From the IMG/VR virus record IMGVR_UViG_3300028610_002494, positions 47,838 to 111,837 of that record: DNA of 64,000 bases; one strand, 5' to 3'. The position numbers and the translations under genes are program-made. The notes below the pieces were generated by a model, which made no database searches, was not told where the DNA came from, and was given only the letters and a program-made list of their open reading frames with translations. Below, piece after piece: positions 232 through 30,805 of the stretch. Origin of the DNA: a virus. Within the stretch, counting starts at the first letter, position 1, and each line of letters opens with the position of its first letter.

Positions 232-804
232 ATGGATTTTTTGATAAGAAAAATTAAAAATGAAAATGATAAAACACAAATTAAAATAATTTGTGAAAGT
301 GTGGACAATAAAACAGTGAAATCTTTTCCTAATATTTGGGAAAGATTTAATAACTGGGAAAAGAATCCACCTTATGTTGTTGAAATAGATGGAAAGATAA
401 TTGCTTTTATGGGATTCACGATTAATAGAAATAATTATATTAATTTTTATGATTTTGCAGTTTTACCTGAATACCAAAGAAAAGGTATTGGTTCAGCTTT
501 ATGGGATAAGGTTATTAAAATTGCAACAGAAAATAGTAAAACAAGAATAAAATGTTCTGCTCACATAGATTATGGTGGATATTTCTTTTACACTAAGAAA
601 GTTAATTGGAAACCAATTGCAAGAAAAGGGAAAGAATATAAATTTGATGCTTTAATTGAAGGAATTGATAATATTAATGATTTTACAAAAAGTATAAAGA
701 AACAAACTCCACCAGATAAAAAAGAGATTGAAAGATATCAGAGATTAGATGAGTATTTTTATAACTTAACTAAAAAAATATGGGAGTACTTTAAAAAATG
801 TTAG
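232..804 (+). CDS. GNAT family N-acetyltransferase
   Basis: Acetyl-CoA motif A FAVLPEYQRKGIGSALW; VVEIDGKIIAF strand; C-terminal KKIWEYF. Confidence 0.85.
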   Translation: MDFLIRKIKNENDKTQIKIICESVDNKTVKSFPNIWERFNNWEKNPPYVVEIDGKIIAFMGFTINRNNYINFYDFAVLPEYQRKGIGSALWDKVIKIATENSKTRIKCSAHIDYGGYFFYTKKVNWKPIARKGKEYKFDALIEGIDNINDFTKSIKKQTPPDKKEIERYQRLDEYFYNLTKKIWEYFKKC

Positions 805-1403
805 AAACAATTGATGAAGAAGATAAAATAATTAGGAAATTAACTTTTAAAGAAAAATTAGAAATTGGAAAATGTGGAGAAAAAATTACAGATGAGAGAA
901 TAGTAGATATAATCCATTTCTTTACAGCTTATAATTCACCAAGAAGATGGTATATAGAAAAAAGTGTATATCAAAAACTATCTCCATATGAAAGATATAA
1001 AAAATACCAAGGCAACGGAATTGATGGATTACTTCATTATGATAGCTTATTAGTTCAAGTAAAAACAAGACAACTTGCATATCTCTTAGAAGAAGACATA
1101 TATTTTGAATTAGGAAGAAGTATAAAAGGAATAAATAAATATAGTGGATGGTATTGGAAAAATATTGATTTATTATTATATTATTTTTATAGCTTAACAA
1201 AAAAGAAGATAATGTGTGGATATGTTATACTTCTGGATGAATTTAAGAAAACATATAACACTCCTGTAAAAATTAATAAGAAGTTTGAAATAAAATGTGA
1301 TTGGAACTTTAATCCAACAAAAATATATTTTTGTCCTAAATTTAAAGATTTTCCAAATAATTCATTTTATGATATAACACCAATAGTAAAGGAGCTGGAA
1401 TAA
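798..1403 (+). CDS. PD-(D/E)xK nuclease-like protein
   Basis: GKCGE...GIDGLL...VQVKTR...IYFE...SGW pattern typical of viral restriction-fold proteins. Confidence 0.5.
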   Translation: MLETIDEEDKIIRKLTFKEKLEIGKCGEKITDERIVDIIHFFTAYNSPRRWYIEKSVYQKLSPYERYKKYQGNGIDGLLHYDSLLVQVKTRQLAYLLEEDIYFELGRSIKGINKYSGWYWKNIDLLLYYFYSLTKKKIMCGYVILLDEFKKTYNTPVKINKKFEIKCDWNFNPTKIYFCPKFKDFPNNSFYDITPIVKELE

Positions 1404-1404
1404 A

Positions 1405-1821
1405 ATAAAACTAATTCCTGATGTAACAGATAAAACATTAGAAACAAAGAAATTTAATCCAAAATTAATTTATGAATCTATATTAAGAGAAACTGATATT
1501 TCTGAAGAAGATGCTAAAAGAATTATGGAAGAAGTTGTAAGAAAATTAGTTTTTATGGGTAAAAAAATAAAGTTCCTATCTGCTCGAATGATAAGAGAAA
1601 CGACAAATGCAACATTTCCAGAATATGGATTTGAAGAAGAAAGAAAAAAATATACAGTAATTGGAATTCCATTCTATGATTTAAAAAATTGGGTTGAAGA
1701 TAAAACCTTAATTCAAACAGAAATTGATAAAAAAATAGTAGAACATATTAGAACTGAATATTTAAATGTAGAAAACCTAATAGAAACAATAAGAAATGGA
1801 GAAAATAATGAGAGATTATAA
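1405..1821 (+). CDS. Standalone ATP-cone protein (NrdD N-terminus-like), probable ATA start
   Basis: Frame is open upstream of the annotated Met at 1525. It reads KKFNPKLIYESILRETDISEEDAKRIMEEVVRKL...FLSARMIRE...EYGFEEERKKYTVIGIPFYD, resembling the archaeal NrdD ATP-cone. GGAGCTGG lies 6 nt before ATA 1405. Confidence 0.7.
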   Translation: MKLIPDVTDKTLETKKFNPKLIYESILRETDISEEDAKRIMEEVVRKLVFMGKKIKFLSARMIRETTNATFPEYGFEEERKKYTVIGIPFYDLKNWVEDKTLIQTEIDKKIVEHIRTEYLNVENLIETIRNGENNERL

Positions 1822-2926
1822 TATAACAGACTACAGAACTGAAAGATGGAATGGTTTTAAGGATTATTATATTAAAGAAATGTACTGTGGTGATGATCCA
1901 AATTATCCTGCTTTAAATTATATTTGTGATAAATTAAAACTAACTGAAGAACAGAGATATTGGATTGCATTCTTATATGGAACTAATTATTGTGTTCCAA
2001 CAACATATTACATTTTTAAGGAATTTCCTGATTATGAAAGAATAGATATTGACGAACTACAACATTGGTGGGATAAAAATAAAGAAAAAACACATTTCCA
2101 AACAGACAGAGCAAAAGTAAAGAACTTTAATTATTTTGTAAAATGTGTTGAAAGCTATCAAGATTTAGTAGGAAAAAACCAAGTAGAAACTTTTGATATA
2201 TTTACTGAAATAGATGATAATCAAGAAAAATATAAAATGGTTTATGATTTTACTAATGAAATATTTTATTTTGGAAGATTTAGTTTATTTAATTATCTTG
2301 AAACAATTAATAAACTCACTAATTTAGAAATGGAACCAGATGGTTTAGATCTTAAATATGCAGAGAGTGCACGTAATGGACTATGTTATGCTTGTAATAA
2401 AGAAGAGTTTATCACATTACATCACAAAAAATCAAAAGAAAAGATAAATTATAGGTATTTACAAGAAAAACTCGAAACAATTGTATATGAATTAAAAGAA
2501 GAGAACCCTGAGATTGATGTAAACTACTGGAATGTTGAAACTGTTTTATGTGCATATAAAAAACTATTCTGGAACACAAGATATCTTGGTTATTATATTG
2601 ATAGACAAATGGAAGATATAATTAAATTGCAGAATAATGTAGATATAATAGATTGGAAAATTCTATGGGATTTTAGAGCTGAATTTCATCATCCACAATT
2701 TCTTGGTGAATTTAATGACTGGAATGGGATAAGAGAAGAGAACAAGTATTATGTAACAAAACATGGAATACTTGATATTAAAGAATTTCCTAAATATAAA
2801 ACCTGTTTAAGAAAAGTTGATTTACAATCTACTAAAAAACCAAAATTAATAAACAACTTAGAACATTATAAAAGAAGAATAATAAGCAAAAAACCTAAAC
2901 CAAAAAAAATATGGGAATATTTTTAA
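1796..2926 (+). CDS. Amino acid:DNA transferase-like (aGPT-PPlase2/ADDT) DNA hypermodification enzyme
   Basis: DDPNYPAL..., RYWIAFLYG, FQTDR, FGRFSLFNYLE, SARNGL, NVETVLCAYKK and RYLGYYIDRQ match the motif pattern of the phage thymidine-hypermodification transferase family. True start may be 1808. Confidence 0.75.
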   Translation: MEKIMRDYNITDYRTERWNGFKDYYIKEMYCGDDPNYPALNYICDKLKLTEEQRYWIAFLYGTNYCVPTTYYIFKEFPDYERIDIDELQHWWDKNKEKTHFQTDRAKVKNFNYFVKCVESYQDLVGKNQVETFDIFTEIDDNQEKYKMVYDFTNEIFYFGRFSLFNYLETINKLTNLEMEPDGLDLKYAESARNGLCYACNKEEFITLHHKKSKEKINYRYLQEKLETIVYELKEENPEIDVNYWNVETVLCAYKKLFWNTRYLGYYIDRQMEDIIKLQNNVDIIDWKILWDFRAEFHHPQFLGEFNDWNGIREENKYYVTKHGILDIKEFPKYKTCLRKVDLQSTKKPKLINNLEHYKRRIISKKPKPKKIWEYF

Positions 2927-2942
2927 AAAGAGGTGAAATATT

Positions 2943-3179
2943 ATAACAAATCATAAAGAAATAAGATACAAAATCTGTTTTAATTGTAAGGTGTTTATGC
3001 CAATTTTCACTTGTGATGCCATTAATCTACAAGAACTAACAAATTTCGAAAGAATACATAATGAACATATGGTTCAAACTATAAACTACAACGAAATACC
3101 TACAAATTATATATTTATTAAAGGCAAAAATGCAAGAGAAAGAACTTTAACACAAATTCAAAAAATGTTAGAAGTATGA
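2943..3179 (+). CDS. Small putative Zn-binding protein, probable ATA start
   Basis: Frame is open upstream of GTG 2991, giving ...RYKICFNCKVF...FERIHNEH (CxxC...HxxH). GAGGTGA lies 6 nt before ATA 2943. Confidence 0.55.
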   Translation: MTNHKEIRYKICFNCKVFMPIFTCDAINLQELTNFERIHNEHMVQTINYNEIPTNYIFIKGKNARERTLTQIQKMLEV

Positions 3180-3337
3180 AAAAATGTAAGGGATGTGGAT
3201 ATCCTCAAAATCCACCAAATAGCAATAAAATTTGGTTATCTGAGGATGGTCTATGTTCAATATGTTATTCAAAACAAATAAAACTTAAAAAAAATAATAA
3301 AAAACCTAAAAAAATATGGGAATATTATGATAATTAA
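3176..3337 (+). CDS. 53-aa zinc-finger protein with KKIWEYY tail (absent from ORF track)
   Basis: MKKCKGCGYPQNPPNSNKIWLSEDGLCSICYSKQIKLKKNNKKPKKIWEYYDN; overlaps both neighbouring genes. Confidence 0.65.
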   Translation: MKKCKGCGYPQNPPNSNKIWLSEDGLCSICYSKQIKLKKNNKKPKKIWEYYDN

Positions 3338-3818
3338 AATAAAGAAAATGGGAAGAAATGTAAAATTACCAACAAAACAAAGAGAAGGAGATGCTGGATA
3401 TGATGCTTATATTTATGGTTTCCAGAAATATACTCAAAATAAAATTAATAAAAATAAAAATCCAGTTAATTTGAATAGATCAGAATATATTTTAGAACCA
3501 TTAGAAAGGGTTGATTGTAGATTAGGATTTGCCACAGAAATTCCTGAAGGATATTATGCTCAAATTGTACCAAGAAGTGGTTTAGCAATTTGGAATGGTT
3601 TAACTGTATTAAATACACCTGCTACAATTGATTCTGGTTTCAGAAATGAATGGATGGTGATAATTGTTAATATTTCTGATAAAAAAGTGAAGTTAATAGT
3701 TGGAGACAGAATTTGTCAAATAATCATAAGAAAATTGGTGGAATTTGAATTTAAAGAAGTTAAAAAATTAAATAAATCTGAAAGAAATTTAAATGGATTA
3801 GGGAGCACAGGAAAATGA
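3327..3818 (+). CDS. dut: Trimeric dUTPase
   Basis: Motifs AGYD, PRSGLA, TIDSGFR, GDRICQ, RNLNGLGSTG. Confidence 0.95.
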   Translation: MIIKIKKMGRNVKLPTKQREGDAGYDAYIYGFQKYTQNKINKNKNPVNLNRSEYILEPLERVDCRLGFATEIPEGYYAQIVPRSGLAIWNGLTVLNTPATIDSGFRNEWMVIIVNISDKKVKLIVGDRICQIIIRKLVEFEFKEVKKLNKSERNLNGLGSTGK

Positions 3819-5017
3819 AAATATTAGTAATAGCAGGATATCTTGAAGCAAATATCAAGAATGAAACACACAAAACTCAAAGTATTAAAGGTGGAGCATC
3901 TAAAAGTATTACAAACATAGTTAATAGCTTAAGAGATATAAAAGGTATCCAAATAAAAGTTTTAACACAAAAATTTAGAAACAAACTCTTAAAATCACTT
4001 GATCTTGATGCTTATATATTAATTCCAAGAATAATAAAAAATATTTCGAAATTTAAACCTAACATTATTATAACACAAGACAGAATTGCTTTTCCAACAA
4101 TTCTCATTTCCAAAATAATGAAAATTCCTGTTATTTATATAATCAGATCTCCCACAGAGTTTTGTCCAAAATATGTAGATGTTGTTAACTATGGAAAAGC
4201 ATGTTCAGGAATAAATAACAGGAGACAATGTTTTAAATGTATTAATAAATGGAAAACCTTGCGGATTTTAATTGATAATAGACCAAAAGGTTCAGAATAT
4301 TCCATTAAAGCTTCTTTATTAAATGTTTTTTTTAAAATACGATATTTTATATGTTTATTCAATTTGTATTTAACTAAAAAAGCTAATATGATTCTGGTTG
4401 CTTCTACATTAATGAAAGAATTTTTTTCCAATAAGATAAACCAAGATAAAATTAAAATAATTAATATAACTCCAATCCACAAATATATAAATAATGTAAA
4501 TAGAAAAAAGAAACAATTGATATTTATCAGAACCCATTATAATGCTGCACATAAAGGTTTAAATTTCATTTTAAAATTATCAAAAATTATACCTGAAAAA
4601 TATCGTATTTTAATAGTTGGCAGTTCTGAGGACAAACAACAAGAAAATAATCCAAAAATATTAAATGTTGGATATATTTCTTCTAAAATATTACTTAACA
4701 AAATGTTTGCAGAATCCAAGATCACTTTAGTTCCATCTTTCTTTACTGAAGCTTTTGGAAGGATTATTCCTGAAAGTTTGTCAAATAAAACTCCAGTTAT
4801 CTCTTCTCCACAATGTGGTGCAAACCAATTTTTTAAGGAAAAAGATTTTTTAAGGGTTGTTCCTTTAAAATTAAACTTATGGATAAAAACAATTGAAGAT
4901 ATTATCCAAAATCCTCCAATTATTACTGATAATGATATTTCTCAAATTTATGAGCAATTCTCATTAGAAAAGAGTAAAAAAGATTTAATGAATATAATAA
5001 AAAATATTAAAAGGTGA
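3815..5017 (+). CDS. GT-B glycosyltransferase (GT4-like)
   Basis: MKILVI...GGAS; HKGL; LVPSFFTEAFGRIIPESLSNKTPVISS (EX7E motif). Confidence 0.9.
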   Translation: MKILVIAGYLEANIKNETHKTQSIKGGASKSITNIVNSLRDIKGIQIKVLTQKFRNKLLKSLDLDAYILIPRIIKNISKFKPNIIITQDRIAFPTILISKIMKIPVIYIIRSPTEFCPKYVDVVNYGKACSGINNRRQCFKCINKWKTLRILIDNRPKGSEYSIKASLLNVFFKIRYFICLFNLYLTKKANMILVASTLMKEFFSNKINQDKIKIINITPIHKYINNVNRKKKQLIFIRTHYNAAHKGLNFILKLSKIIPEKYRILIVGSSEDKQQENNPKILNVGYISSKILLNKMFAESKITLVPSFFTEAFGRIIPESLSNKTPVISSPQCGANQFFKEKDFLRVVPLKLNLWIKTIEDIIQNPPIITDNDISQIYEQFSLEKSKKDLMNIIKNIKR

Positions 5018-5364
5018 TTAAAATAAAAGAATGGAAAGAATGGAATTCATTTATACAATGGATATGTATTATTGGTTTTTTTTTAATAATTATAATGGTA
5101 TTTATTGAAGTTTTTTATTTTATTATAAATATTCCAGATGAACTTATTCTTGGGATTCGTGAAAATAGTATAGGGAAACATTATCTCAATAATCCAGAAT
5201 TAGTAGCTGAGATGGAAGCTTTAGCATCATCATCTGAGTTTTTACATTATACAATAGTATTTTTATTATATACATTGATATGTATAGTATTATTTTTTTC
5301 ATATAATGAGGTTAGAGAAAATGAAAAAATATTTAAAAAAAGGAAAAAACATAGAAAAAAATAA
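5014..5364 (+). CDS. Membrane protein (2 TM)
   Basis: Two hydrophobic segments. The annotated GTG lies within an AGGTGA SD, so ATA 5023 may be the true start. Confidence 0.55.
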   Translation: MIKIKEWKEWNSFIQWICIIGFFLIIIMVFIEVFYFIINIPDELILGIRENSIGKHYLNNPELVAEMEALASSSEFLHYTIVFLLYTLICIVLFFSYNEVRENEKIFKKRKKHRKK

Positions 5365-5617
5365 ATTGAAACACATTTTTAAATCTATTTTATTCTATAC
5401 TAAACTTGTGTTTTATGTTTCAATAGGAATTTTAAGTTTAGGAATGATATTTGTATTGTTTATGGGTTCGGATTTAGAAGAAGAAATATTTGAAGATGAA
5501 TATGAATTAATGAGGAGAAGAGAACAATTAGAAGATGATTTAATATCAGAAAAGACAAAAAAATACAATAAATTAACTTTAATAAAAAAAGAGGAAAATA
5601 ATGAAAGAGAAATATAA
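5306..5617 (+). CDS. Membrane protein (1 TM)
   Basis: Hydrophobic segment followed by a charged tail. Confidence 0.5.
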   Translation: MRLEKMKKYLKKGKNIEKNKLKHIFKSILFYTKLVFYVSIGILSLGMIFVLFMGSDLEEEIFEDEYELMRRREQLEDDLISEKTKKYNKLTLIKKEENNEREI

Positions 5618-6344
5618 AGATTGGAAAGAAGCATTTCAAATGAAAAAAAAGTATTCAAAAAACTTTCCATTTTGTTTCTATGATTTAGCTGCAAAATATT
5701 TACCTGAAGATGAGAAAGCTATAGTTATTGATGTTGGTTGTGGAGAATGTAGATTTGAGGATTATCTTGATCTATGGAACAAATATAAAAATTTATTTGT
5801 TTTAGATGGAAATCTTGAAACTGTTGATAAAATAAAAGAAAAAACAAGATTGATACATGAATTTGATTATACAATTGAATATATAGCACCAAATAGAATG
5901 TTATTTGAAAATGAATCAGTGGATTATATATTTTGTGGACACTTAATAGAACATCTTGATTTCAAGGAATTATATAAATTATTTAAAGAATTTGATCGAG
6001 TTTTAAAAAATGATGGAATTCTTGTTGTAAGCACTCCTATGTTATGGAATGGTTTTTATGGGACACTTAGTCATGTAAAACCTTATCATCCAGCACTTTT
6101 CAAGGATTATTTTTATACTGATGATGAAAATATAAACCCATCATATAAACCTATTTCCAGAAAATATAAACTTGAGGAACTTGTTTATAGATACCATACA
6201 TTTGTAGATATACATAATACAATGGGATCATCTATAAAAGCATTTGATTTTCTAATTCAATTCTCGAAGTATGTTTTGAGAGCTTTAGGAATAAAAAAAT
6301 ATACTCAAACTGGATATACAATAATTTTAAGGAAACAAAAATGA
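5601..6344 (+). CDS. Class I SAM-dependent methyltransferase
   Basis: VIDVGCGE; FENESVDYIFCGHLIEHL; RVLKNDGILVVSTP. Confidence 0.9.
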   Translation: MKEKYKDWKEAFQMKKKYSKNFPFCFYDLAAKYLPEDEKAIVIDVGCGECRFEDYLDLWNKYKNLFVLDGNLETVDKIKEKTRLIHEFDYTIEYIAPNRMLFENESVDYIFCGHLIEHLDFKELYKLFKEFDRVLKNDGILVVSTPMLWNGFYGTLSHVKPYHPALFKDYFYTDDENINPSYKPISRKYKLEELVYRYHTFVDIHNTMGSSIKAFDFLIQFSKYVLRALGIKKYTQTGYTIILRKQK

Positions 6345-7021
6345 ATAACATTAAAGATACAAGCTGGATTTCATATAAAACACTTCAATCACATTTTATG
6401 CAAATTTATTTAACAATAAAACTAAAAGCTAAAGATGTTCTTGAGATTGGAGTATTAAGGAAAATTGTCACTTCTATTTTAAATCAATATTGTAATTTAA
6501 CCACTCTTGATTTTAAAGAAGAGTTTAATCCAGACTTGATTATTGATATTACTGATTCTAAACAGCTTGATACCATTAAAAATAATGCTTATGATTTAAT
6601 ATTACTCTGTGAAGTGTTAGAACATATTTCTTATGAAAAAATAGATAAAATACTCAAAATATTAAAAAAGAAAACAAGAAAATACCTAATAATTTCAGTT
6701 CCAAATCAAACTACATATATAAATCTAACTTTCTTTAATCACAGTAATAATAGAATACTTAAAAAAATAAAAGATTATTTTAATTTATTTTTTATTAAAA
6801 TAGGAAACTTAATTTCAAAATTAGACTATAATATAAGGAAAAAACATAGAAAATATAAATCCGAAGGGACTTTCTTTCCTCATTGTTGGGAATTAGGAGT
6901 AGATAAATATAGTATAAACACATTTAAAAAACTATTAGAAAAGTATTTTACAATTATAAAAGAAGAAAGACTTAGAGATCATCCTTTTCACCATTTTTTT
7001 ATATTAAAAAAGAGGTTATAA
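6341..7021 (+). CDS. Class I SAM-dependent methyltransferase
   Basis: VLEIGV; YDLILLCEVLEHI; LIISVPN; HCWELG. Confidence 0.8.
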   Translation: MNNIKDTSWISYKTLQSHFMQIYLTIKLKAKDVLEIGVLRKIVTSILNQYCNLTTLDFKEEFNPDLIIDITDSKQLDTIKNNAYDLILLCEVLEHISYEKIDKILKILKKKTRKYLIISVPNQTTYINLTFFNHSNNRILKKIKDYFNLFFIKIGNLISKLDYNIRKKHRKYKSEGTFFPHCWELGVDKYSINTFKKLLEKYFTIIKEERLRDHPFHHFFILKKRL

Positions 7022-7022
7022 A

Positions 7023-7757
7023 ATGGGATTAACAAATGTTATCATTGATTTTCAAGAAGAAATCATTCAAAAAATAGGTTTTCAATGGCAAAACATAAGA
7101 ATATGTGAACTTGGTGCTATGTATATGAGAACAGTTGATATTCCTGCAAAAGAATATTATATTAAAGAAAAAAAAGTATTAGAACATATATCTATTGATT
7201 GGAATGGTATGTATGATTCACTTCCAATTGATTTATGTTTTCCTGTTCCTGAAGAATTATTAAATAGATTTCATTTAATAACTGATTTTGGAACAATAGA
7301 ACATGTAGATAATCAATATCAAGTTTTTAAAAATACACATGATATATGTACTAAAAATGGAATTATGATCCACATCTTACCAACCTTAAATTATTGGAAA
7401 TTTCATTGTCGTTATTTTTATACAAAAGAATTCTTTTTAAAATTAGCAGAATTATGTAAATATAAAACTCTTGATTTAAAAGAAGGAAATTGTTGTGATC
7501 CACCAATATTTAAGAGAGATTTGATTTATGTAGCATTTTTAAAACTAAATAATAATAAATTTACTTCAGAAAAAGAATTTAATAAGCTTAATATATTTGA
7601 TATAAAAGAACCAGATAATACTAACAAACTTAGAACAGAAAATATTGTTTACATTTTATGGAAATTAACAGAACACCAATTTTTTTTGAAGGGTTTTCGT
7701 AAAATACTTAAAAATATCTATAAGATATATATAAATGTTAAAAAAGGTATAAAATGA
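7023..7757 (+). CDS. SAM-dependent methyltransferase-like
   Basis: ICELGA; ISIDWNG; LITDFGTIEHV; GIMIHILP. Confidence 0.7.
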   Translation: MGLTNVIIDFQEEIIQKIGFQWQNIRICELGAMYMRTVDIPAKEYYIKEKKVLEHISIDWNGMYDSLPIDLCFPVPEELLNRFHLITDFGTIEHVDNQYQVFKNTHDICTKNGIMIHILPTLNYWKFHCRYFYTKEFFLKLAELCKYKTLDLKEGNCCDPPIFKRDLIYVAFLKLNNNKFTSEKEFNKLNIFDIKEPDNTNKLRTENIVYILWKLTEHQFFLKGFRKILKNIYKIYINVKKGIK

Positions 7758-8629
7758 AAACAAGAATATTCATACTCTGTGCAGGGAAAAATGTAAAATA
7801 TTATGGAATTACAAGACAATTATTAAAGATAAATGGAGAAGAAATATTAGGAAGAATGATTAGATTAATAAAAGAAGAATGTAATTATGAGATTTTTATA
7901 ATCACCAATAATGATATTATAGAGAATTATATTAAAAGTATTAGAAATAATAAAATTATACTTTTTCATCCTGCTGCTGAACGATATCATATGGAAAGCT
8001 TATATTCAACTAAAGAAGAATGGGTTGAAAGAAATATATTCTTATTTGGTGATGTAGTGTTCTCTAAACATGCTATAAAAAAAATATTAAATTCTGATAA
8101 TAAATTAAGTTTCTTCTTTAGAATAAAACCACATTTATATTTAAACAAACGTTATCCTGAAGGTTTTGGTATGTTAATTCCATTGAATGAAACTAATAGG
8201 ATGTCAGATATCATTTTAAGATCCTATAAAAGAGCATCTATACATGGTGGAGTATTTATATTTAATAGTATTTGGAAAGAACTTAATTTAAGATTAGGAG
8301 AAGAACATTTAGAATTTGAATCTTATAAAACACGTGATTTAATCAGTAAACTATGCTTAAATGAATTTATAAGAGGTATTTTTTATGGAATAATACGATC
8401 CATTGAAGGAAAAATAATACGATTTATTTTTTATAAAGCTAAAATATCTGATAAATGGAAAAATAAACTTGTTAAATTATTTTTAGGGAAAAAAATTCCA
8501 GATTATAATAAAAACTTATTATCATCTAAATACATTGTAGAAATACATGATATAACTGATGATATAGATCATCCAAGAGAGTATAAAGATTATATTAAAC
8601 TAATAGTGAAAAAAGGTTTATTACAATGA
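7754..8629 (+). CDS. Nucleotidyltransferase (NTP_transferase / LicC-like)
   Basis: IFILCAGK...RQLLKINGEEILGRMIRLI; FLFGDVVFS; TDDIDHPREY. Confidence 0.75.
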   Translation: MKTRIFILCAGKNVKYYGITRQLLKINGEEILGRMIRLIKEECNYEIFIITNNDIIENYIKSIRNNKIILFHPAAERYHMESLYSTKEEWVERNIFLFGDVVFSKHAIKKILNSDNKLSFFFRIKPHLYLNKRYPEGFGMLIPLNETNRMSDIILRSYKRASIHGGVFIFNSIWKELNLRLGEEHLEFESYKTRDLISKLCLNEFIRGIFYGIIRSIEGKIIRFIFYKAKISDKWKNKLVKLFLGKKIPDYNKNLLSSKYIVEIHDITDDIDHPREYKDYIKLIVKKGLLQ

Positions 8630-9540
8630 TGGATGCTACTGATAAATTTACTACAATTGGTTTTGAAATAACGAACCACTGTAATAAAAACTGTAAATTT
8701 TGCACTAAGATGACAGGATATAAATATAAAATCAGATATACAAAATTAGATGATTATGAATATGTTGTGTCTTGTATAAACAAGAAAGACAGAGAAAAAT
8801 TTAGAAAAGTAGTGATCACTGGTGGAGAACCACTTTTACATCCACATTTTATAGAATTAATGAATTTAGTAAGAAAAGATTTTCCGAAAGCTGAGATTAA
8901 AGTACAATCAAATGGAAGATTAATTAAAAGATTGCCACAAAAGAAATTAAGAATTTTACCTAATATAAAAAAAGTAATATTTTCAGTATCCCATTATCCA
9001 AGCTGGAACGATGAAATAAAGAAAATATATGACGGAAATATTAAAACACCGTTAATTTATAGAAGAGTAATCAGAAAACTAACCAAAAATAACAAATTTA
9101 TAAAATTACTCAATTTAGATTATAGAATTCCATTTATAAAAAAAGTAAGACGATTTATTAGCAATCCTTTTAAAAGAGGAAATGTTTACTTTAAGAATTT
9201 CACAGGATTTCGTGATCCTTATGTAGATCCAAATCTAACGAAAGAAAATGCAAAAATAGTTAGAAAAACATGTCATTATTTTATTTGGATAATAGACAGA
9301 AAGCTTTATAGCTGTTGTGTAGATTCTGTTTATGAAAGATATTATAACACCAAATCTGTTGGTATTAAATTTGATAAAAACTGGAAAAAAAATTATTTCA
9401 AATTACCAACATGGAGAGCTTGTGCTCATTGTCCACAAGGATATAATAGGTACATAGTAATTAGTTCAGGATTTGAAAAATATAAATTAATTAGTTTAAG
9501 AAAAAGATTAGAATTTGTGAGGATTAAAACCCATGTTTAA
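8626..9540 (+). CDS. Radical SAM protein
   Basis: CNKNCKFC; ITGGEPLLHP; SNG; C-terminal CC and CAHC. Confidence 0.9.
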   Translation: MMDATDKFTTIGFEITNHCNKNCKFCTKMTGYKYKIRYTKLDDYEYVVSCINKKDREKFRKVVITGGEPLLHPHFIELMNLVRKDFPKAEIKVQSNGRLIKRLPQKKLRILPNIKKVIFSVSHYPSWNDEIKKIYDGNIKTPLIYRRVIRKLTKNNKFIKLLNLDYRIPFIKKVRRFISNPFKRGNVYFKNFTGFRDPYVDPNLTKENAKIVRKTCHYFIWIIDRKLYSCCVDSVYERYYNTKSVGIKFDKNWKKNYFKLPTWRACAHCPQGYNRYIVISSGFEKYKLISLRKRLEFVRIKTHV

Positions 9541-9967
9541 AAAAATAAAATTATCACAATTCATTGGCAGACAATTATCAAGATTAAAAATGGGTCAAGT
9601 ATATTATGTAATGGGAATGTATTCTATAACAGCTGTAGGAATATTAAAAGTAGCATTTCCACAAATAAGTATTTGGACATTTATACTTTTTATTCCATTT
9701 ATGTTTGTTGGAGCTTTTTTAATTGGTTTTATTGCAGATAGAAGTAATGTTACAACGATGGATTATCAGAAGACAATAGAGATGACAAACAGATATTTAA
9801 CCATTTTAGACTTTAAAAATAATGATTTTAGAATACTCCAAATGGAAACTATGTTTGAATGGATAAAATCCTTAAAAGAAAATAAACCTTTAGATAAAAA
9901 TATATTAAATGAGAAATATAAAGAATTTTTAAATAAATGGAGTCCTAAAAAAGAAAATGAAAAATAA
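9533..9967 (+). CDS. Membrane protein (2 TM)
   Basis: Two hydrophobic helices; coupled to neighbouring genes. Confidence 0.55.
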   Translation: MFKKIKLSQFIGRQLSRLKMGQVYYVMGMYSITAVGILKVAFPQISIWTFILFIPFMFVGAFLIGFIADRSNVTTMDYQKTIEMTNRYLTILDFKNNDFRILQMETMFEWIKSLKENKPLDKNILNEKYKEFLNKWSPKKENEK

Positions 9968-10131
9968 AATAATAACACCTAAAAACTTAACAAATCAACA
10001 AAAATGTGATATTGATTGGATTATAAATGTATTAACCAAATCAACAAAAAACTCAATAAGTTCTGTAAATATTTATTTTAATGGGTTTGATATTAAATTT
10101 AATTATAAAATAAAAATTAAGCTGAGGAAAA

Positions 10132-10587
10132 ATGGAAAAAAATAAAGATTTAATTGATACTTTAGATCCACTACATTATTACACTAAAAAGGATTTATGT
10201 GGAAATTGTAAATATATAAAATCATTTTTATGTGATAAGAGATATGCTGAAGGAATTAACATAACCTATTTAGAACAATATCAAATTAAAATATATATAT
10301 ATAAATTTATATCAAATAATTTAAGAAAGATAATTGATTCATTACACGACAAAGAACTATATCATCATAGACAAGGTGGATATTTTGCTTTAAAATCAAC
10401 CAATTTCCATTGTGGTGAATCTTGTGATTGTGATTGTTCTACAGAAAGATGCTGGGAATTTGAAAGAGTACCAAGTAGAAGACAGCCACATTGCATCAAG
10501 TTTTTTGGTTTGGATTTACCTGAAAAATATAAAGAGAACAATATTACATTTATTTTAGGCAATTTAGAGTTTGAGAAAATAATATAA
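10132..10587 (+). CDS. Cys-rich metal-binding protein (possibly DUF2284-like)
   Basis: CGNC...FALKSTNFHCGESCDCDCSTERC...FGLDL. Confidence 0.4.
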   Translation: MEKNKDLIDTLDPLHYYTKKDLCGNCKYIKSFLCDKRYAEGINITYLEQYQIKIYIYKFISNNLRKIIDSLHDKELYHHRQGGYFALKSTNFHCGESCDCDCSTERCWEFERVPSRRQPHCIKFFGLDLPEKYKENNITFILGNLEFEKII

Positions 10588-10614
10588 ACAAGGTTTATAT
10601 AAACAAGGTTTATA
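10583..10614. promoter_or_regulatory. TATAAAC-N3-GTTTATA dyad, tandem pair
   Basis: Two overlapping copies, 15-bp period, spacer AAG. Confidence 0.8.
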
Positions 10615-10678
10615 TAAAATAAAATAAAGTTAAATAGTAAAATAGTCTTTAAATAATTATAGAGGTTAAAAATTAAAT

Positions 10679-11968
10679 ATGAAATATAAAATGAAAGAAT
10701 TAAGTATTGAAATAACATATAAATGTCCAATGAATTGTATTCATTGTAGCAGTAGAGCAGAACTTGAAAATGAGACAATGATACCAACAGAAAAGATTTT
10801 AGAAATGATTGGAAGATGTAAAATATACTGTGGAACTGAATGTGTTTCTCTTTCAGGTGGAGAACCATTTGAACATCCTGATTTCTGGAAAATATTAAAA
10901 CACATTAAAGCTCAAGGTTTAAAAAGTATAGTTTATTCTTGTGGAATTGAGATGTCACCTGATGGATATTATTGGTGTTTTAGTGATGAAAGAATAAAAA
11001 AACTAAAAACCTTATGTGATGTGTTAATAATAAGTTTACATGGAACTGGTGATAAACATAATAAAATATTAAATATTGGAGATACTGCTTTTTGGAATGT
11101 ATTATATACAATAATGAAAGCAGTGCGTGAAAGTATTAAAGTTGAAATTCACTTTGTTCCTATGTCTTTTAACTATAAAGACATTAAAATTATATATGGA
11201 GTCTGTATGGCACTTGGTGTTTCTAAAATGTCAATATTACGATATGTACCACAAGGAAGAGGATTAGAAACAAGTAAAACTGAAGGAGAAATAAACCTAA
11301 ATAAACCACAATTTATCGAACTACAATATGATATGAGATATATAAGAGATTTATCTAAAATCACTGGTATGACTGAATTTAGAATTGGTATTCCAGCAGA
11401 CTTTACATTTTTACTTGATTATCTTGAAGGGAATAATGATGCCAAAAAAACTAAAGCTTGTACAGGTGGAAAAACTAAAATACTTGTAAAAGCTGATGGG
11501 TTTGTTCAAGTATGTCCTGCTTGGAAAGAACTTGATCACCTTTCAGCAGGAAATATTTATAAAGAAGATATTGTAGATATATGGAAAAAAGGAAATACTT
11601 ATTGTAAATTTAGAGAATTTACCTATAAAGATTTAGGAGAACCATGTAAAAATTGTAAACTTGTTGAAAGTTGTTTAGGTGGTTGTGGAGCTCAAAGAAT
11701 TTTGAATTCAACCTTTAAAGAAATAAATGGACTAAAAATTGCTCCTGATCCATTATGTTTTTATGATGAAATAGAACTTACTAAAAAAGGGTTGATTGAA
11801 TTAATAGATATATTAGAACTAAAGAAATGGTTAATCAATAAAAAAGAAGAATATGAAGAAATTGCTGTTAATTCAATGTCAGATTCACGAGCAGTTAATT
11901 ATATGGCAAGAACAACTACTATTAAAGAAATCCTTAAATATATTGAAGAAATAAAAGAGATTAATTAA
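10679..11968 (+). CDS. Radical SAM/SPASM domain protein
   Basis: CPMNCIHC; SGGEPF; SPASM cysteines CTGG...VQVCP...CKNCKLVESCLGGCGAQR...DPLC. Confidence 0.9.
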   Translation: MKYKMKELSIEITYKCPMNCIHCSSRAELENETMIPTEKILEMIGRCKIYCGTECVSLSGGEPFEHPDFWKILKHIKAQGLKSIVYSCGIEMSPDGYYWCFSDERIKKLKTLCDVLIISLHGTGDKHNKILNIGDTAFWNVLYTIMKAVRESIKVEIHFVPMSFNYKDIKIIYGVCMALGVSKMSILRYVPQGRGLETSKTEGEINLNKPQFIELQYDMRYIRDLSKITGMTEFRIGIPADFTFLLDYLEGNNDAKKTKACTGGKTKILVKADGFVQVCPAWKELDHLSAGNIYKEDIVDIWKKGNTYCKFREFTYKDLGEPCKNCKLVESCLGGCGAQRILNSTFKEINGLKIAPDPLCFYDEIELTKKGLIELIDILELKKWLINKKEEYEEIAVNSMSDSRAVNYMARTTTIKEILKYIEEIKEIN

Positions 11969-12186: not shown

Positions 12187-14544
12187 TTGAGAAGAAGATT
12201 CACATTTGATATAGAAATTAATTATGATGAAATAGACCCATTTGATTTAGTAATTAAAAAAGGATCAAGTCCTATTCAAATGTTTGGTTGTTATGATTAT
12301 TATAAAAATAAATTTTATTCCTTTTTTTATCATAAAAACGTGAAATTAATACCTGCAGAAGAAATTAAAAATAAAATTGATAAAAAAATATATTTAATGC
12401 TTAAAAAACATTTTGGAAATCAAAAATTTGTTGTTAAAGAAGGATTTTTTAATTCTACTGAAAGTGGAAGAAAATGGAAATGTAGATATCTTTCTTTTAA
12501 TAATGAAAAAATAATGATTAGAGCATTTATGAAATTTGTTAAAGATATCAGTCCAGACATTTGGTCTGGGTTCTTTATTGAAACATTTGATCTTGTTTAT
12601 ATTATGAACAGATGTAAAACACTAAAAGTTAGTTATAAATATTTAAGTCCACTTTATGAAGCTTATATAAGTCATGGAAGAGCTAAAATAAGAGGAAGTA
12701 TAATATATGACACTCCTAAAACTTATGCTAAATATATGGGAACTCATCGTCATGCTAATTCACTGAAAAAAATAGCTGAATCACATCTGAAAAGAGATGA
12801 TGACCACAAAATAACTAAAACATCTGAAAGTATTATAAACGAAGATTGGTATGATAATGATTGGAAAAAATTCATAGAATATTGTTTAGTAGATGTAGAA
12901 TTATGTGTTTTATTAGAAGAAGAACTTGAACTAATAAGCATGGCAGAAGGATTTGAAAAATTTACTGGAACCAACCCTGAATTTGTATTTTTTCCTTCTC
13001 ATCTAATTGAAAGTACATTTAATTTCATTAAACCTATTTATGAAGAACAAGTATTAAAAAATGAATATAAAATTGCATTTAACACTAAAAAGAGAAGAAA
13101 ATTTGAGAAAGCAGCAGGTGCAAAAGTATTAGAAAGTAAAAAAGGATTTTATCGAAAAGGATTAATGATAATCCTTGATCTTGCAAAAGAATATCCAAAA
13201 ATAATAGAAAGTATAAATATATCACCTGAAACTTTAGTTAAAATAATAGATCAAAATGAGAAAGACAAATACAATTATTGTAAAGAAAATGATGTATATT
13301 ATGTTAAAGAACCAATAGGATTTGTTCCTTTTGCTTTTAAATTTCTTTATTTAATAAGAGATCGTATAGAAAAAGAAAGAGATAAATTTGAATTTGGTTC
13401 TGATAAATTTAATGATATGAACAAAAAAAGACAAACAGTAAAAGATTTGATAAATGCTGTCACAGGTCAAGCTGATTATGCAGACTCAATTATTCTTAGT
13501 CCAATATGTGCTAATTCATGTAGATTAACTGGACAAAAAGAAATAGTAATATCTGTTAATTACACAAAAAAATTTGGTATTGAATTAAAATTAAAACTTA
13601 AGGTTATTTATGGTGATACTGATTCTATTTTTGTTTGGTTAGAAAATGTACAAGATGTTGAGATTGCAAAGAAAATAGCTAAAGAAATATGTAAATGGAT
13701 ACAAGTTGGGTTTGATAAATATGCAAAAGAACTAAATTTAAAATCTCACCAATTTGAAATAGGTTTAGAAAAAATATTAGATATTTTTGTTAGTATAGGC
13801 AAAAAGAAAAAGTATTTTGGGCATATTTTATGGGCAGATGGTAATTATGTAAAAGAAGAAAGCAGTTTACTTGTAAAAGGATTTGAGACAAGAAGATCAG
13901 ACAGTAGTGATTTTACAGATAAAATACAAAAAGAAATATTTGGATTAATAAACAAAACAAGAATATTAGGATGGCATAAAGTAAGAAAAAAAATACTACA
14001 TAAAATAAAAGTGGAATATCCAGATGGGTTTTCAGAAGATAATTTACTTACAATTGGAATACCTAAAAAAATAAATAAACGATTTAAAGATTACAAAGTG
14101 ACAAATGCTCATCTAAGAGGATGTGAATATGCTAATAAATATGTTAATGCTAATTTTCATGCTGGTTCTAAACCTAAATTGATTTATATTAAAGAGGTTA
14201 AACAAAAAGGTGATATAACTTTTCCAAAAAAATATCCACCAACAGATGTATTATGTGTGCAAGAAGGTATGAAAATTCCAGAAGGAGTTTTTATTATTGA
14301 CAAAAAAACAATGCTGGAAAAAACAGTTTATAAAAAATTAAGACAAACACTTGATGTTGTAGGAATACCAATATCACAAATACAAAGTGGATTGAAACAA
14401 ACTAATATAAAAGATTATTTTAATAAATTTAGTAATGACAAAAAAATAACGAAAAAACATATTTTAACTATAAATAAAGAAAAGTTAGGTAAAATATTAA
14501 TTAACTCTAAAAATATTCTTAAAACTATGAAAAAAGAGGTTTAA
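12187..14544 (+). CDS. polB: Family B DNA polymerase with 3'-5' exonuclease
   Basis: ExoI FDIE; ExoII FDLVYI; ExoIII YCLVD; motif A DLAKEYP; motif B KDLINAVTG; motif C YGDTDS; KKKY; KGFETRRSD; PIP box QTNIKDYF. Confidence 0.95.
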   Translation: MRRRFTFDIEINYDEIDPFDLVIKKGSSPIQMFGCYDYYKNKFYSFFYHKNVKLIPAEEIKNKIDKKIYLMLKKHFGNQKFVVKEGFFNSTESGRKWKCRYLSFNNEKIMIRAFMKFVKDISPDIWSGFFIETFDLVYIMNRCKTLKVSYKYLSPLYEAYISHGRAKIRGSIIYDTPKTYAKYMGTHRHANSLKKIAESHLKRDDDHKITKTSESIINEDWYDNDWKKFIEYCLVDVELCVLLEEELELISMAEGFEKFTGTNPEFVFFPSHLIESTFNFIKPIYEEQVLKNEYKIAFNTKKRRKFEKAAGAKVLESKKGFYRKGLMIILDLAKEYPKIIESINISPETLVKIIDQNEKDKYNYCKENDVYYVKEPIGFVPFAFKFLYLIRDRIEKERDKFEFGSDKFNDMNKKRQTVKDLINAVTGQADYADSIILSPICANSCRLTGQKEIVISVNYTKKFGIELKLKLKVIYGDTDSIFVWLENVQDVEIAKKIAKEICKWIQVGFDKYAKELNLKSHQFEIGLEKILDIFVSIGKKKKYFGHILWADGNYVKEESSLLVKGFETRRSDSSDFTDKIQKEIFGLINKTRILGWHKVRKKILHKIKVEYPDGFSEDNLLTIGIPKKINKRFKDYKVTNAHLRGCEYANKYVNANFHAGSKPKLIYIKEVKQKGDITFPKKYPPTDVLCVQEGMKIPEGVFIIDKKTMLEKTVYKKLRQTLDVVGIPISQIQSGLKQTNIKDYFNKFSNDKKITKKHILTINKEKLGKILINSKNILKTMKKEV

Positions 14545-15733: not shown

Positions 15734-16492
15734 ATGAGAATATTTAAGAACAAAATTATCTTAGGAAATTGTTTAGATATCTTAAAATTTATAGATGATC
15801 AAGTAGATTTAGTTTTAACTGATCCACCACAATATAGATTAATTAATGATGATATTAAACTAAATAATAGAAAAGATTTTGTAAGAAAAGCCAATTTTGA
15901 TTTATTTAATTCATATAAAGATTTCCTTATTTTCACTGAAAAATGGATTAAATTAACATCAGAACTGATGACTAATAACTCAACAATATATATTTCATAT
16001 GCTGAACAATTCTCAAATGACCTAATTAATATTTGTAAAAACTATGATTTATCATATTTTGATACATTTTATTGGCATAAAACCAACCCAATGCTACAGA
16101 TCAGAAAAAGAAACTTTAGATCATCAGTAGAGACAACCCTAATATTTACAAGAGGAAAATACACATTTAATTTCTTAGAACAGAGTAAAATGCATGATTT
16201 TATGGAATTGCCAATATGTTTAGGAAAAGTAAGACTAAAGAATAAAAAAGGTGGAACATTACATCCAACACAAAAACCATTAAAACTAATCAAGCATTTT
16301 GTTAGAATCTCATCTAACATTGGAGATAAAGTATTGGATCCATTCTCTGGCACTGGAACAACAAATGTTGCCTGTAAAATGTTAAATAGAAAATGTTTAG
16401 GTATAGAAATTAATGAGGAATATTATTTAGCAAGTATTAAAAGATTAAATAAAATAAATACCACAAAATCAGGTGTATTAGGTTGGTTATAA
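15734..16492 (+). CDS. DNA N6-adenine/N4-cytosine methyltransferase (beta class)
   Basis: LTDPPQY (variant of DPPY); HPTQKP; VLDPFSGTGTT; LGIEIN. Confidence 0.85.
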   Translation: MRIFKNKIILGNCLDILKFIDDQVDLVLTDPPQYRLINDDIKLNNRKDFVRKANFDLFNSYKDFLIFTEKWIKLTSELMTNNSTIYISYAEQFSNDLINICKNYDLSYFDTFYWHKTNPMLQIRKRNFRSSVETTLIFTRGKYTFNFLEQSKMHDFMELPICLGKVRLKNKKGGTLHPTQKPLKLIKHFVRISSNIGDKVLDPFSGTGTTNVACKMLNRKCLGIEINEEYYLASIKRLNKINTTKSGVLGWL

Positions 16493-17609
16493 AAGTATTT
16501 GGTCTTTATGAACAATTTCCAAGAAGATATGGAAAATCTAATAAAGTAATATATTCCAAAAAAGAATTTCTAAGACTTATTAATAGAGATAATGGATATA
16601 ATGATGTTTTTGTAAGTGTTTTTAGTTATGCTTATTTAAAGGAAGGAACAAATGGAACATATAAAATAGATTCTGAATCTGCTATTATTGATAAAACATA
16701 TATTGATATGGACACTAAAGATTTTGTAGATTATTATGATTTTTATGCAAATAATCCTGATTTTGAAAAAATAAAAGAAAAGACAAAATTCTAAGAATTT
16801 ATGTTTATAGTGGTGGTGGATTTCATCTATATAGTTATATTGGGAATAGACCAGAAAACAAAAAATACTTTTGCAGGAATGCTATTGATTATATAAATAA
16901 ACTGGTATGTAAAGATGAAGAAAAATATACAGATATAAATGGAAAAGAAAGAATAAGAAAAATATGGGATCCGCATAGTCCTCTTAAGCTCTCTCAAATG
17001 GCACGTGTAATTGGAACATATAATCCTAAAAGAAAACTATTTTGTACATCTTTAGATGAACATGATTTAGATATGGGAATAAAATGGATAAAAATAAAAG
17101 CAAAAGAACAACATGATAAAATCCATTACTTAGGAAATAAATTAATGTATTTTGACAGTTCTTTTGACCAATCTAATATCTTAGAAAAATGTTCTGAAGT
17201 TTTAGAATTAAATTTAGAAGATTACTCTTCAGACATTAAAGAACTCCTCGAATCATTAGGTATTTTATGGAAAGAAATATCGTTATGTATGAAATATTTT
17301 CTAAAAGAAAAACAAAAGCTAAACTATAATGAAAGATACCTAATAATAACCTTTCTATATAGATGTGGACTCAGCAAAAAAGAAATAATAGAAGTATTAA
17401 AATTAATATTAACTCCAGATAAATTATACCACTGTTGTGGTGTAATCACAAATAATTATAGATCAACATCACGACAAAAAAGTAGAATAGAATATCAACC
17501 AGATGATATAATAGAAAATGATTATTATATCTCATGTTCTCAGATTAAAAATTATGGAATGTGTAATGTTTTATGTAAAATAAAGGATGTATTATATTAT
17601 TTTTCTTAA
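16483..17609 (+). CDS. Archaeo-eukaryotic primase, PriS-PriL-like fusion, split by a -1 frameshift at ~16766-16791
   Basis: First frame has IIDKTYIDMD (motif I). The -1 frame is open from 16767 and has YSGGGFHLY (motif II), ARVIGTYN (motif III) and a PriL-CTD-like region (SLC...LNYNER...YISCSQIKNYGMCNVLC). Confidence 0.8.
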
Positions 17610-19579: not shown

Positions 19580-20233
19580 ATGTCTAAAAAGAAAAAAGTA
19601 AGAGTTAGAAAAGAAAAAATTGCACTTACAGAAGAACAAGTTAAAGATTATCTTAAAACTATAAAAGAAGAAGATAAAAAACATAGTCATAGGAATTATT
19701 TGATGGCATTAACTTGGTTCAGCACAGGATTAAGAGTTGGAGAAATGTGTAATTTTATAGTTGGTTGGATTGAAAAAAGTAATGATAATTATATACACGT
19801 GAAACAAAATGAAGCACCATTTGTATTCGCACCAAAATATGGATCTACAAGAAGAATAGCTGTCCAAAAGGATTTAATTAAAGAACTGAGAAAATATTTA
19901 GCTGGAAGAACTAAAGGATATGTATTTAAACCACAATCTAACAATCAAACAAATCCTTATGCTAAATTTCATGACAAATCTCCAAATCCAATATTTAATA
20001 AATATTTCAGAGAAACAAAATCAATTGGAAGAAACCTTGGCACACATACATTTAGAAGAACTTTTGCTACTCAATTAGCATATAGTAAACCACCAGTTCC
20101 ATTGCCTAAAATTAGTTATTATCTTGGTCATAGAGACATACAAACAACATTAAATTATCTAAAGCAGATCACGAACGATGACCATACTGAACTCTTGAAT
20201 GTAGATTATATTAAAGATATATATAAATATTGA
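19580..20233 (+). CDS. Tyrosine recombinase/integrase (catalytic domain only)
   Basis: TGLRVGE; PKYG; HTFRRTFAT; LGHRDIQTTLNY. Confidence 0.92.
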   Translation: MSKKKKVRVRKEKIALTEEQVKDYLKTIKEEDKKHSHRNYLMALTWFSTGLRVGEMCNFIVGWIEKSNDNYIHVKQNEAPFVFAPKYGSTRRIAVQKDLIKELRKYLAGRTKGYVFKPQSNNQTNPYAKFHDKSPNPIFNKYFRETKSIGRNLGTHTFRRTFATQLAYSKPPVPLPKISYYLGHRDIQTTLNYLKQITNDDHTELLNVDYIKDIYKY

Positions 20234-30368: not shown

Positions 30369-30620
30369 ATGAGTAAAAAAGAAACAATTAACCATCCAAA
30401 ACATTATAACATAGGAATATTTGAAGTTATAGATATTATTGAAGACTGGGATCTTGGATTCCACCTTGGAAATGCTGTAAAATACATTGCCAGAGCTAAA
30501 CATAAAGATAATGAAGAAGAAGATATAAAGAAAGCTATATGGTATTTGAAAAGATACTTAAAAAGAGAAAAATATAAAAAAATAAGAAAACTAATTAAAG
30601 AGGATTTAGATAATGTCTAA
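30369..30620 (+). CDS. DUF3310 family protein (T7 gp1.7 nucleotide kinase-related)
   Basis: INHPKHYN...EVIDII...GFHLGNAVKYIARAKHK...EDIKKAIWYL. Confidence 0.85.
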   Translation: MSKKETINHPKHYNIGIFEVIDIIEDWDLGFHLGNAVKYIARAKHKDNEEEDIKKAIWYLKRYLKREKYKKIRKLIKEDLDNV

Positions 30621-30805
30621 AAAAGAAATACAAAATTTATCAAATCAAATTGACAAGCTTTCACCAATGGAATTTTCTAAGTTATGCCTAAAGGTTATTA
30701 AAAAAATAATGAGAAGGCAAAATAGTGAAACAATTGAAAATTCAACTGAAAAAAATGATAAAAGGGTTTTAATTGACCTAATGATTAAAAATGATATAAA
30801 AATAG

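Follow-up and report, generated by a model that had tools for sequence, protein, structure and literature searches.

We examined a 64,000-nucleotide stretch of viral DNA (hereafter, the window), which takes up the right end of a 111,837-bp virus record in IMG/VR (IMGVR_UViG_3300028610_002494). Three genes at its beginning encode unrelated proteins, a GNAT acetyltransferase, an amino-acid:DNA transferase (ADDT, also called AADT) and a small zinc-ribbon protein, which share a C-terminal tail, KKIWEY[F/Y], that we interpret as a putative docking peptide of the PCNA-interacting peptide (PIP) type. In window coordinates, the genes and their motif copies are as follows.

232–804, plus strand: GNAT acetyltransferase, 190 residues (Pfam PF00583, 56.3 bits versus a cut-off of 20.7)
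772–792, plus strand: KKIWEYF motif of the GNAT protein, with codons GAG and TAC
1796–2926, plus strand: open reading frame of ADDT (Pfam PF18724, 72.2 bits versus a cut-off of 26.2)
2903–2923, plus strand: KKIWEYF motif of ADDT, with the stop codon directly after it
3176–3337, plus strand: zinc-ribbon protein, 53 residues, CxxC...CxxC, consisting of ribbon, helix, basic linker and tail
3308–3328, plus strand: KKIWEYY motif of the zinc-ribbon protein

The open reading frames (ORFs) and tails are exactly as an earlier note on this DNA had described them, with C-termini of TKKIWEYFKKC in the GNAT protein, KPKKIWEYF in ADDT and KPKKIWEYYDN in the zinc-ribbon protein. The flanks are strongly basic (KKPKPKK, KKNNKKPKK and TKK...FKKC), and KKPKPKKIWEYF is an example of a tail peptide. 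The ADDT match spans positions 21–228 of the 232-position PF18724 profile, and its probable start is ATG 1808, preceded by a Shine–Dalgarno GGAG. The 53-residue ORF, which the earlier note had put forward as an unannotated zinc finger, is a real conserved gene with two orthologues, one in synteny on contig L085 (2159–2320) and the other protein P0122. At the DNA level the motif copies read AAAAAAATATGGGA[G/A]TA[C/T] at 772, 2903 and 3308; both synonymous differences claimed for them (GAG/GAA and TAC/TAT) are present and are the only ones, leaving 16 of 18 bases common to all three. A genome-wide motif scan, which the earlier note had proposed, gave only these three terminal sites: across six frames of the 111,837-bp genome, [ILMV]W[ED][FYW][FYW] occurs three times, always 0–3 residues from a stop. 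When random internal 12-mers were drawn instead, a complex 5-mer was common to at least three proteins in 2 of 1,000 draws.

Comparison with related loci, of which contigs L084 and L085 provide the close genomic context, indicates that selection acts on the peptide of the tail and not on its DNA. Two ADDT orthologues, one from L084 (P0002, 81% identity) and P0006 (61%), keep KKIWEYF, and that of L085 (P0004) ends in KSIWDYV, while the linker of 25–35 residues between the domain end (RKVxFxSIGDxY) and the tail is unalignable among orthologues. Across homologues, ADDT tails read KKIWEYF (three times), SIWDYV, KTGLGRWI and QGGIRKFL. ADDT has 496 homologues at E ≤ 0.001, and a PIP-like tail was located at most four residues from the end in seven of the nine closest versus two of 111 others (Fisher p = 2e-8; n = 120); those two end in the canonical QGGIRKFL and the near-canonical KTGIRDFLCMK. 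The zinc-ribbon orthologue of L085, at the same place after ADDT, ends in KRNKRIWEYID and P0122 in SKKIWEYYKN, so that close orthologues keep [KR]IWEY[YI].

Orthologues of the GNAT protein (about 53% identity) were found only as the C-terminal halves of ADDT–GNAT fusions (P0003, P0005 and P0124). With ADDT placed N-terminally, these fusions have lost the internal ADDT tail and kept a single terminal one (GNLSNWLNKK, GNVLYWLNKK or KTGLAMWM), in which the sequence is changed and the pattern h-x-x-aromatic-hydrophobic is retained. The fusion is Rosetta-stone evidence, from gene architecture, for joint action by the two enzymes. On L084, a non-orthologous GNAT protein at the same position ends in KDIKYWMK. 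Across the ADDT, GNAT and zinc-ribbon families, the tail is a conserved peptide island that is swappable with canonical PIP boxes.

These comparisons also bear on the possibility, raised in the earlier note, that the motif is conserved as DNA independently of reading frame. It would then be a Shine–Dalgarno-like TGGGAR, a regulatory site for the downstream gene or a recombination scar copied between neighboring genes, translated only by the way. The near-identity of the three DNA copies would fit such a repeat, as would the short distances to start codons, 11 nt from a GGGAG in the GNAT copy to the next ATG and 4 nt from a GGGAA in the zinc-ribbon copy to ATG 3327, and codon bias at 25% GC blurs peptide and DNA identity within a single genome. 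However, orthologues preserve the peptide pattern in IWDYV, RIWEYID, LSNWL and LAMWM, which are encoded by other codons or contain other residues, and no out-of-frame or intergenic copy of the motif DNA was found in the genome or related loci. Moreover, the spacing from motif to next start codon is not constant, a separate strong Shine–Dalgarno GAGGTGA (2930–2936) follows the ADDT copy, and the ADDT copy of L084 has no gene close downstream. The exact KKIWEY[FY] DNA pattern has 19 matches in IMG/VR, all internal or unrelated. We therefore rejected the Shine–Dalgarno or regulatory reading, which is largely refuted on this comparative evidence, and we regard any explanation at the DNA level as highly improbable.

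Upstream of the zinc-ribbon gene, a 79-residue CxxC protein (2930–3179) is conserved, and its orthologue (L085:1954–2175) starts with ATG. The conserved N-terminus in the window contains no ATG, GTG or TTG but follows the strong GAGGTGA with in-frame ATT (2940) and ATA (2943), so a non-canonical start codon is likely.

Predicted structures place the tails in flexible regions. The AlphaFold2 model of ADDT (mean pLDDT, 80.7) forms a helical globule to about residue 320, and residues 331–369, a disordered linker of about 40 residues, have pLDDT below 50; the sole structure in the tail stretch is a helical turn at 368–371, on IWEY. For the zinc-ribbon protein, residues 1–42 (ribbon and helix) are modelled confidently and the tail with low confidence. 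PCNA-binding motifs are diverse and mostly occur in disordered regions, where positive flanks can strengthen binding by as much as four orders of magnitude (PMC6881253), and the tails share this combination of disorder, terminal position and positive flanks. The tail is well supported as a disordered C-terminal docking short linear motif.

Written as [TP]-K-K-I-W-E-Y-[FY], the tails agree with the PIP-box pattern Q-x-x-[ILM]-x-x-[FY]-[FY] at positions 4, 7 and 8. With a residue other than Q at position 1, they belong solely to the broadened, Q-less class of PIP-like motifs. None of the three contains the APIM motif [KR]-[FYW]-[LIVA]-[LIVA]-[KR] and, by inspection, none fits the bacterial beta-clamp motif Q-L-x-L-[FL] (QL[SD]LF type); relevant to the latter test, the replication genes of the virus are of archaeal type (FEN1/XPG, PriL-like and Hel308-like). 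The viral FEN1 (XPG_N and XPG_I domains), encoded outside the window and a member of a classical group of PCNA clients, ends in a canonical PIP box, QINLAKFLK, which suggests that a PCNA-type clamp, probably that of the host, is in play.

We propose, with a probability of roughly 55%, that the KKIWEY[F/Y] tails dock on PCNA, which is likely the clamp of the host. The tail would act as a Q-less PIP-type motif of the form h-x-acid-aromatic-aromatic, presented at the extreme C-terminus behind a lysine-rich disordered linker, and would plug into the hydrophobic pocket of the host's PCNA sliding clamp. ADDT, the GNAT protein and the zinc-ribbon protein would thereby be tethered to clamps that remain on newly replicated viral DNA, where the GNAT protein presumably acetylates the amine appended by ADDT. 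Post-replicative thymidine hypermodification could then take place at the fork or directly behind it, and new viral DNA would be chemically disguised during copying. Consistent with this order of events, ADDT, kinase and acetyltransferase enzymes act post-replicatively on DNA (PMC8989533), and every tagged enzyme has polymeric, already replicated DNA as its substrate. PCNA binding, the identity of the host and the coupling to replication are inferred. The earlier proposal that a Q-less docking tag recruits the modification enzymes to a sliding clamp or other shared hub is partly supported, by the peptide conservation, the disordered basic linker and the PIP-like replacements.

Several observations weigh against this proposal. 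The tails have T or P, not Q, at position 1. No element-encoded PCNA, for which the earlier note had suggested a search, came to light: PCNA_N and PCNA_C matched no frame of the virus (six frames, E ≤ 10), Pfam and PHROGs searches of most 200–300-residue ORFs revealed no clamp, and two acidic candidate ORFs were not PCNA-like in the ESM Atlas. We infer a host clamp because no PCNA was detected in the virus, and the hub must accordingly be either a host protein or an undetected divergent clamp. Tails are also missing from the upstream kinase-like gene and from the glycosyltransferase, radical SAM enzymes and class-I methyltransferases of the modification island described below. The loosest pattern, h-x-x-a-a, is C-terminal in 14 proteins versus 9.7 expected, and in ten versus 4.2 expected when a basic or Q residue stands in front; as such loose patterns are common in an AT-rich proteome, the weaker look-alikes could be due to chance and were not counted as evidence. 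Finally, the alpha-glucosyltransferase of phage T4 was reportedly proposed in 2004 to interact with the gp45 clamp. This binding, the sole phage precedent for a clamp-bound DNA-modifying enzyme, was not reproduced in a 2025 preprint (bioRxiv 10.64898/2025.12.06.692756) and is now disputed.

Similar peptides occur in other proteins of the virus. The corresponding genes are listed below.

12280–14544, plus strand: catalytic part of PolB (Pfam PF00136)
15734–16492, plus strand: N6/N4 DNA methyltransferase (Pfam PF01555, 139 bits), with the tail KSGVLGWL (16469–16489)
16998–17609, plus strand: primase-large-subunit-like protein (Pfam PF04104, 22.6 bits versus a cut-off of 22.4), ending in KDVLYYFS
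43977–44243, plus strand: 88-residue protein with no Pfam family, carrying a canonical-format PIP box, QAIIKGYYT (44214–44237)
30218–31174 of the genome (L002:10218–11174), outside the window: archaeal-type FEN1

The canonical QTNIKDYF that the earlier note saw in PolB is real, though internal, at 14398–14421, 40 residues before the stop. Its core, I-K-D-Y-F, resembles the I-W-E-Y-F of the tails. At the same place the PolB of L085 has ETTMFDFI, indicating that even the polymerase can do without the glutamine. The motif-final residue is aromatic in PolB, ADDT, the GNAT protein and the zinc-ribbon protein of the window virus (F, F, F and Y) and aliphatic in PolB, ADDT and the zinc ribbon of L085 (I, V and I), a split that, across two genomes only, hints at co-adaptation. 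The methyltransferase and primase-like tails previously listed as look-alikes, SGVLGWL and DVLYYFS, are also real. The methyltransferase orthologue on L085 ends in SGVLKWLE and a second L085 methyltransferase in GDVSFWLK. The primase-like tail is identical in L085, but its role as a docking motif is uncertain, as it directly follows the Fe–S cysteines and may be structural.

Related low-GC contigs extend the list to further enzyme families. Tails were found on Amidoligase_2 proteins (KKGITKWI and KGIKSWI), on P-loop kinase3 proteins resembling the 5-hydroxymethyl-2'-deoxyuridine (5-hmdU) kinase (the canonical QSGVLKFMREN, and KTGVLKFI), on an LMWPc-TAGT glycosyltransferase fusion (RNIRSWL), on a HAD-GNAT fusion (KKTLKEYLK) and on N6/N4 methylases (SGVLKWLE and GDVSFWLK). 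Homologous genes in high-GC phage-like loci have no such tails; there, the homologues of the tailed enzymes stop at the domain boundary (IGDVYE type). Likewise, matches in a collection of species genomes were confined to phage-like contigs of bacterial metagenome-assembled genomes, and lacked tails.

The modification island goes on beyond the dUTPase gene, at 3815–11968. This part contains two radical SAM enzymes, of which one has a SPASM domain, along with a GT1 glycosyltransferase, an NTP-transferase-like gene and two or three genes resembling class-I methyltransferases. PIP-like tails are absent from all of these.

The tails might instead bind a hub other than PCNA, such as a viral scaffold, a replisome protein (PolB, the helicase or an undetected divergent clamp) or one another in a mutual three-protein complex. 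We consider this possible, though improbable. It would account for three tails that are near-identical yet unlike those of FEN1 (QINLAKFL) and the methyltransferase (SGVLGWL), and it gains from the GNAT–ADDT fusions of relatives, which imply that the two enzymes work in physical proximity, from the virus encoding no detected PCNA and from its many ORFs without known family. However, orthologues swap in canonical or archaeal-type PIP peptides (QGGIRKFL, KTGLGRWI and KTGLAMWM), which points to a general PIP pocket and not a private partner, and the tails share their motif type with the PolB core IKDYF. Against mutual assembly in particular, a tail is retained in the fusions, where GNAT and ADDT form one polypeptide, and bringing the two together is therefore not its only purpose.

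A signal for timing or sorting, that is, a C-terminal degron or a virion-packaging signal, would likewise be terminal, conserved, disordered and common to functionally linked proteins, and eukaryotic PIP degrons are a precedent for such tails in degradation. This explanation is very unlikely in our view, as nothing indicates a protease or a partner for packaging, the order of basic flank and then h-x-x-a-a is that of PIP motifs, and the same type of tail is found on FEN1, DNA methylases and kinase-like enzymes, whose common feature is action on DNA.

Docking on PCNA gains a further aspect from the relatives of the zinc-ribbon protein. A profile search recovered 12 further small relatives, in most cases by matches confined to the ribbon (query positions 1 to about 40), and 11 of the 15 family members end in h-x-x-aromatic-hydrophobic at most four residues from the end, with tails such as KKLDKWL, KLERWL, KKLEDFI, KKIDKFI, NLEEWI and SLNKWLGNTR. 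A scan of IMG/VR gave no confirmed locus for the family. Longer members (87–113 residues, P0129–P0137) have two PIP-like peptides each, the first right after the ribbon (GMDKFV, GIDTFL or KPIFAF) and the second a KKLDKWL-type C-terminus. The post-ribbon peptide (GMDKFV or GIDTFL) aligns with KKIWEYY of the window, and these longer proteins look like carriers of tandem clamp-docking motifs. More speculatively, the zinc-ribbon proteins may constitute a previously unrecognized family of small viral PCNA-binding factors that could displace host clients, and ADDT, the acetyltransferase and a zinc-ribbon adaptor might each fill one pocket of a single trimeric host PCNA ring as on a tool-belt. Such an arrangement would make successive 5-hmdU chemistry processive right behind the fork; we hold this joint suggestion only tentatively and think it doubtful.

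Q-less PIP motifs are present in eukaryotic translesion polymerases, for example KGLIDYYL in Pol iota and KHTLDIFF in Pol kappa. The tails resemble Q-less motifs in the broadened view of PIP sequences (PMC6881253) in lacking Q, in their h-x-x-a-a form and in their positive flanks. Unlike the eukaryotic examples, which have measured affinities, they are known from sequence and comparison only. In eukaryotes, the DNMT1–PCNA interaction ties maintenance methylation of DNA to the fork. As proposed here for the tailed enzymes, DNMT1 is a DNA-modifying enzyme that a PIP motif brings to nascent DNA, but its motif is N-terminal and serves epigenetic inheritance, whereas the viral hypermodification would presumably act against host restriction. 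The T4 alpha-glucosyltransferase idea similarly has a viral DNA-hypermodifying enzyme riding a sliding clamp; it concerns a phage of bacteria, gp45 and no defined motif, in contrast to a conserved terminal motif on many enzyme families.

Also close in format are the archaeal C-terminal PIP clients (FEN1, PolB, RFC-L, NucS/EndoMS and NreA), with the consensus QxxhxxAA and, in A. fulgidus, the peptide KTTQSTLDSFFK (PDB 1RXM; PMC4929162). Archaeal clients, NucS and NreA among them, typically carry their PIP motifs C-terminally after unstructured linkers (PMC4929162), and the viral tails likewise sit at the very C-terminus behind an unstructured stretch, with basic flanks, a hydrophobic residue at position 4, an acidic one at 6 and aromatic ones at 7 and 8. 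They differ in having T or P instead of Q at position 1 and tryptophan at position 5, and the predicted clients here are thymidine-hypermodification enzymes and a zinc-ribbon protein, unlike the replication and repair clients of archaea. In phages, thymidine hypermodification involves the 5-hmdU DNA kinase, AADT/aGPT-Pplase, acetyltransferase and radical SAM enzymes (PMC8989533). The virus shares with that pathway ADDT (PF18724), GNAT, kinase-like and radical SAM enzymes and post-replicative action on polymeric DNA, whereas the bacterial-phage enzymes have no described clamp tether.

PIP-mediated recruitment and Q-less variants of the motif are already known. Three aspects appear to be new, and our literature searches found no description of them: clients that are thymidine-hypermodification enzymes from several unrelated families, a dedicated zinc-ribbon family bearing one or two PIP-like peptides, and hypermodification that, by implication, is coupled to replication in a virus of archaeal type. 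If the proposal is correct, thymidine hypermodification would be physically coupled to replication in this virus lineage, which would explain how nascent DNA is shielded from host nucleases with no unprotected interval. ADDT, GNAT, amidoligase, 5-hmdU DNA kinase, TAGT glycosyltransferase and viral methylases would become new classes of PCNA client, and the long-debated notion of clamp-riding viral DNA-modifying enzymes, for which the T4 claim was not upheld, would gain a clean case defined by a motif. The small zinc-ribbon proteins, with their one or two PIP-like motifs, would offer a new way to study how viruses manipulate archaeal clamps.

The remaining genes provide clues to the host lineage. 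The genome has a GC content of 25%, holds nearly all of its genes on the plus strand and encodes PolB and topoisomerase IA (Pfam search) as well as a Hel308-like helicase and an ERCC4-like nuclease. Judged by sequence similarity, this set of replication and repair genes is of archaeal or eukaryotic type. The best PDB matches of FEN1 are archaeal (A. fulgidus and Pyrococcus FEN1, E = 1e-68; A. fulgidus 1RXV, E = 8e-68), with the human protein at about 1e-43. The host is probably archaeal. PolB shares 64% identity with its L085 orthologue (L085 4773–7103); the PolB of the window lacks the N-terminal domain. Its best identity to GenBank phages is 26% (tblastn), so that no named relative was found among them, and IMG/VR contains no close relative of PolB or of ADDT (best ADDT match, 54% identity).

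A more specific lead, though not proof, comes from an ESM Atlas look-up of a single acidic ORF of 292 residues with no assigned function (window 43097–43975). Its nearest clusters are hypothetical, LRR and Roc-type proteins of Promethearchaeota (Asgard), with a feature score of 0.81 and TM of 0.55–0.58, and thus point to an Asgard host lineage. The related contig L084 (LAZR01005401) has an accession prefix that we take to denote a marine-sediment metagenome, again a lead on the host and not proof. A search for tRNA genes detected none in the virus. Elsewhere in the genome, an N6/N4 DNA methylase is fused to an Mrr_cat restriction-endonuclease domain (35263–36696; L002:15263–16696). The virus record has direct terminal repeats at its ends and a tyrosine integrase gene at window positions 19580–20233, a combination that hints at a temperate or integrating lifestyle.

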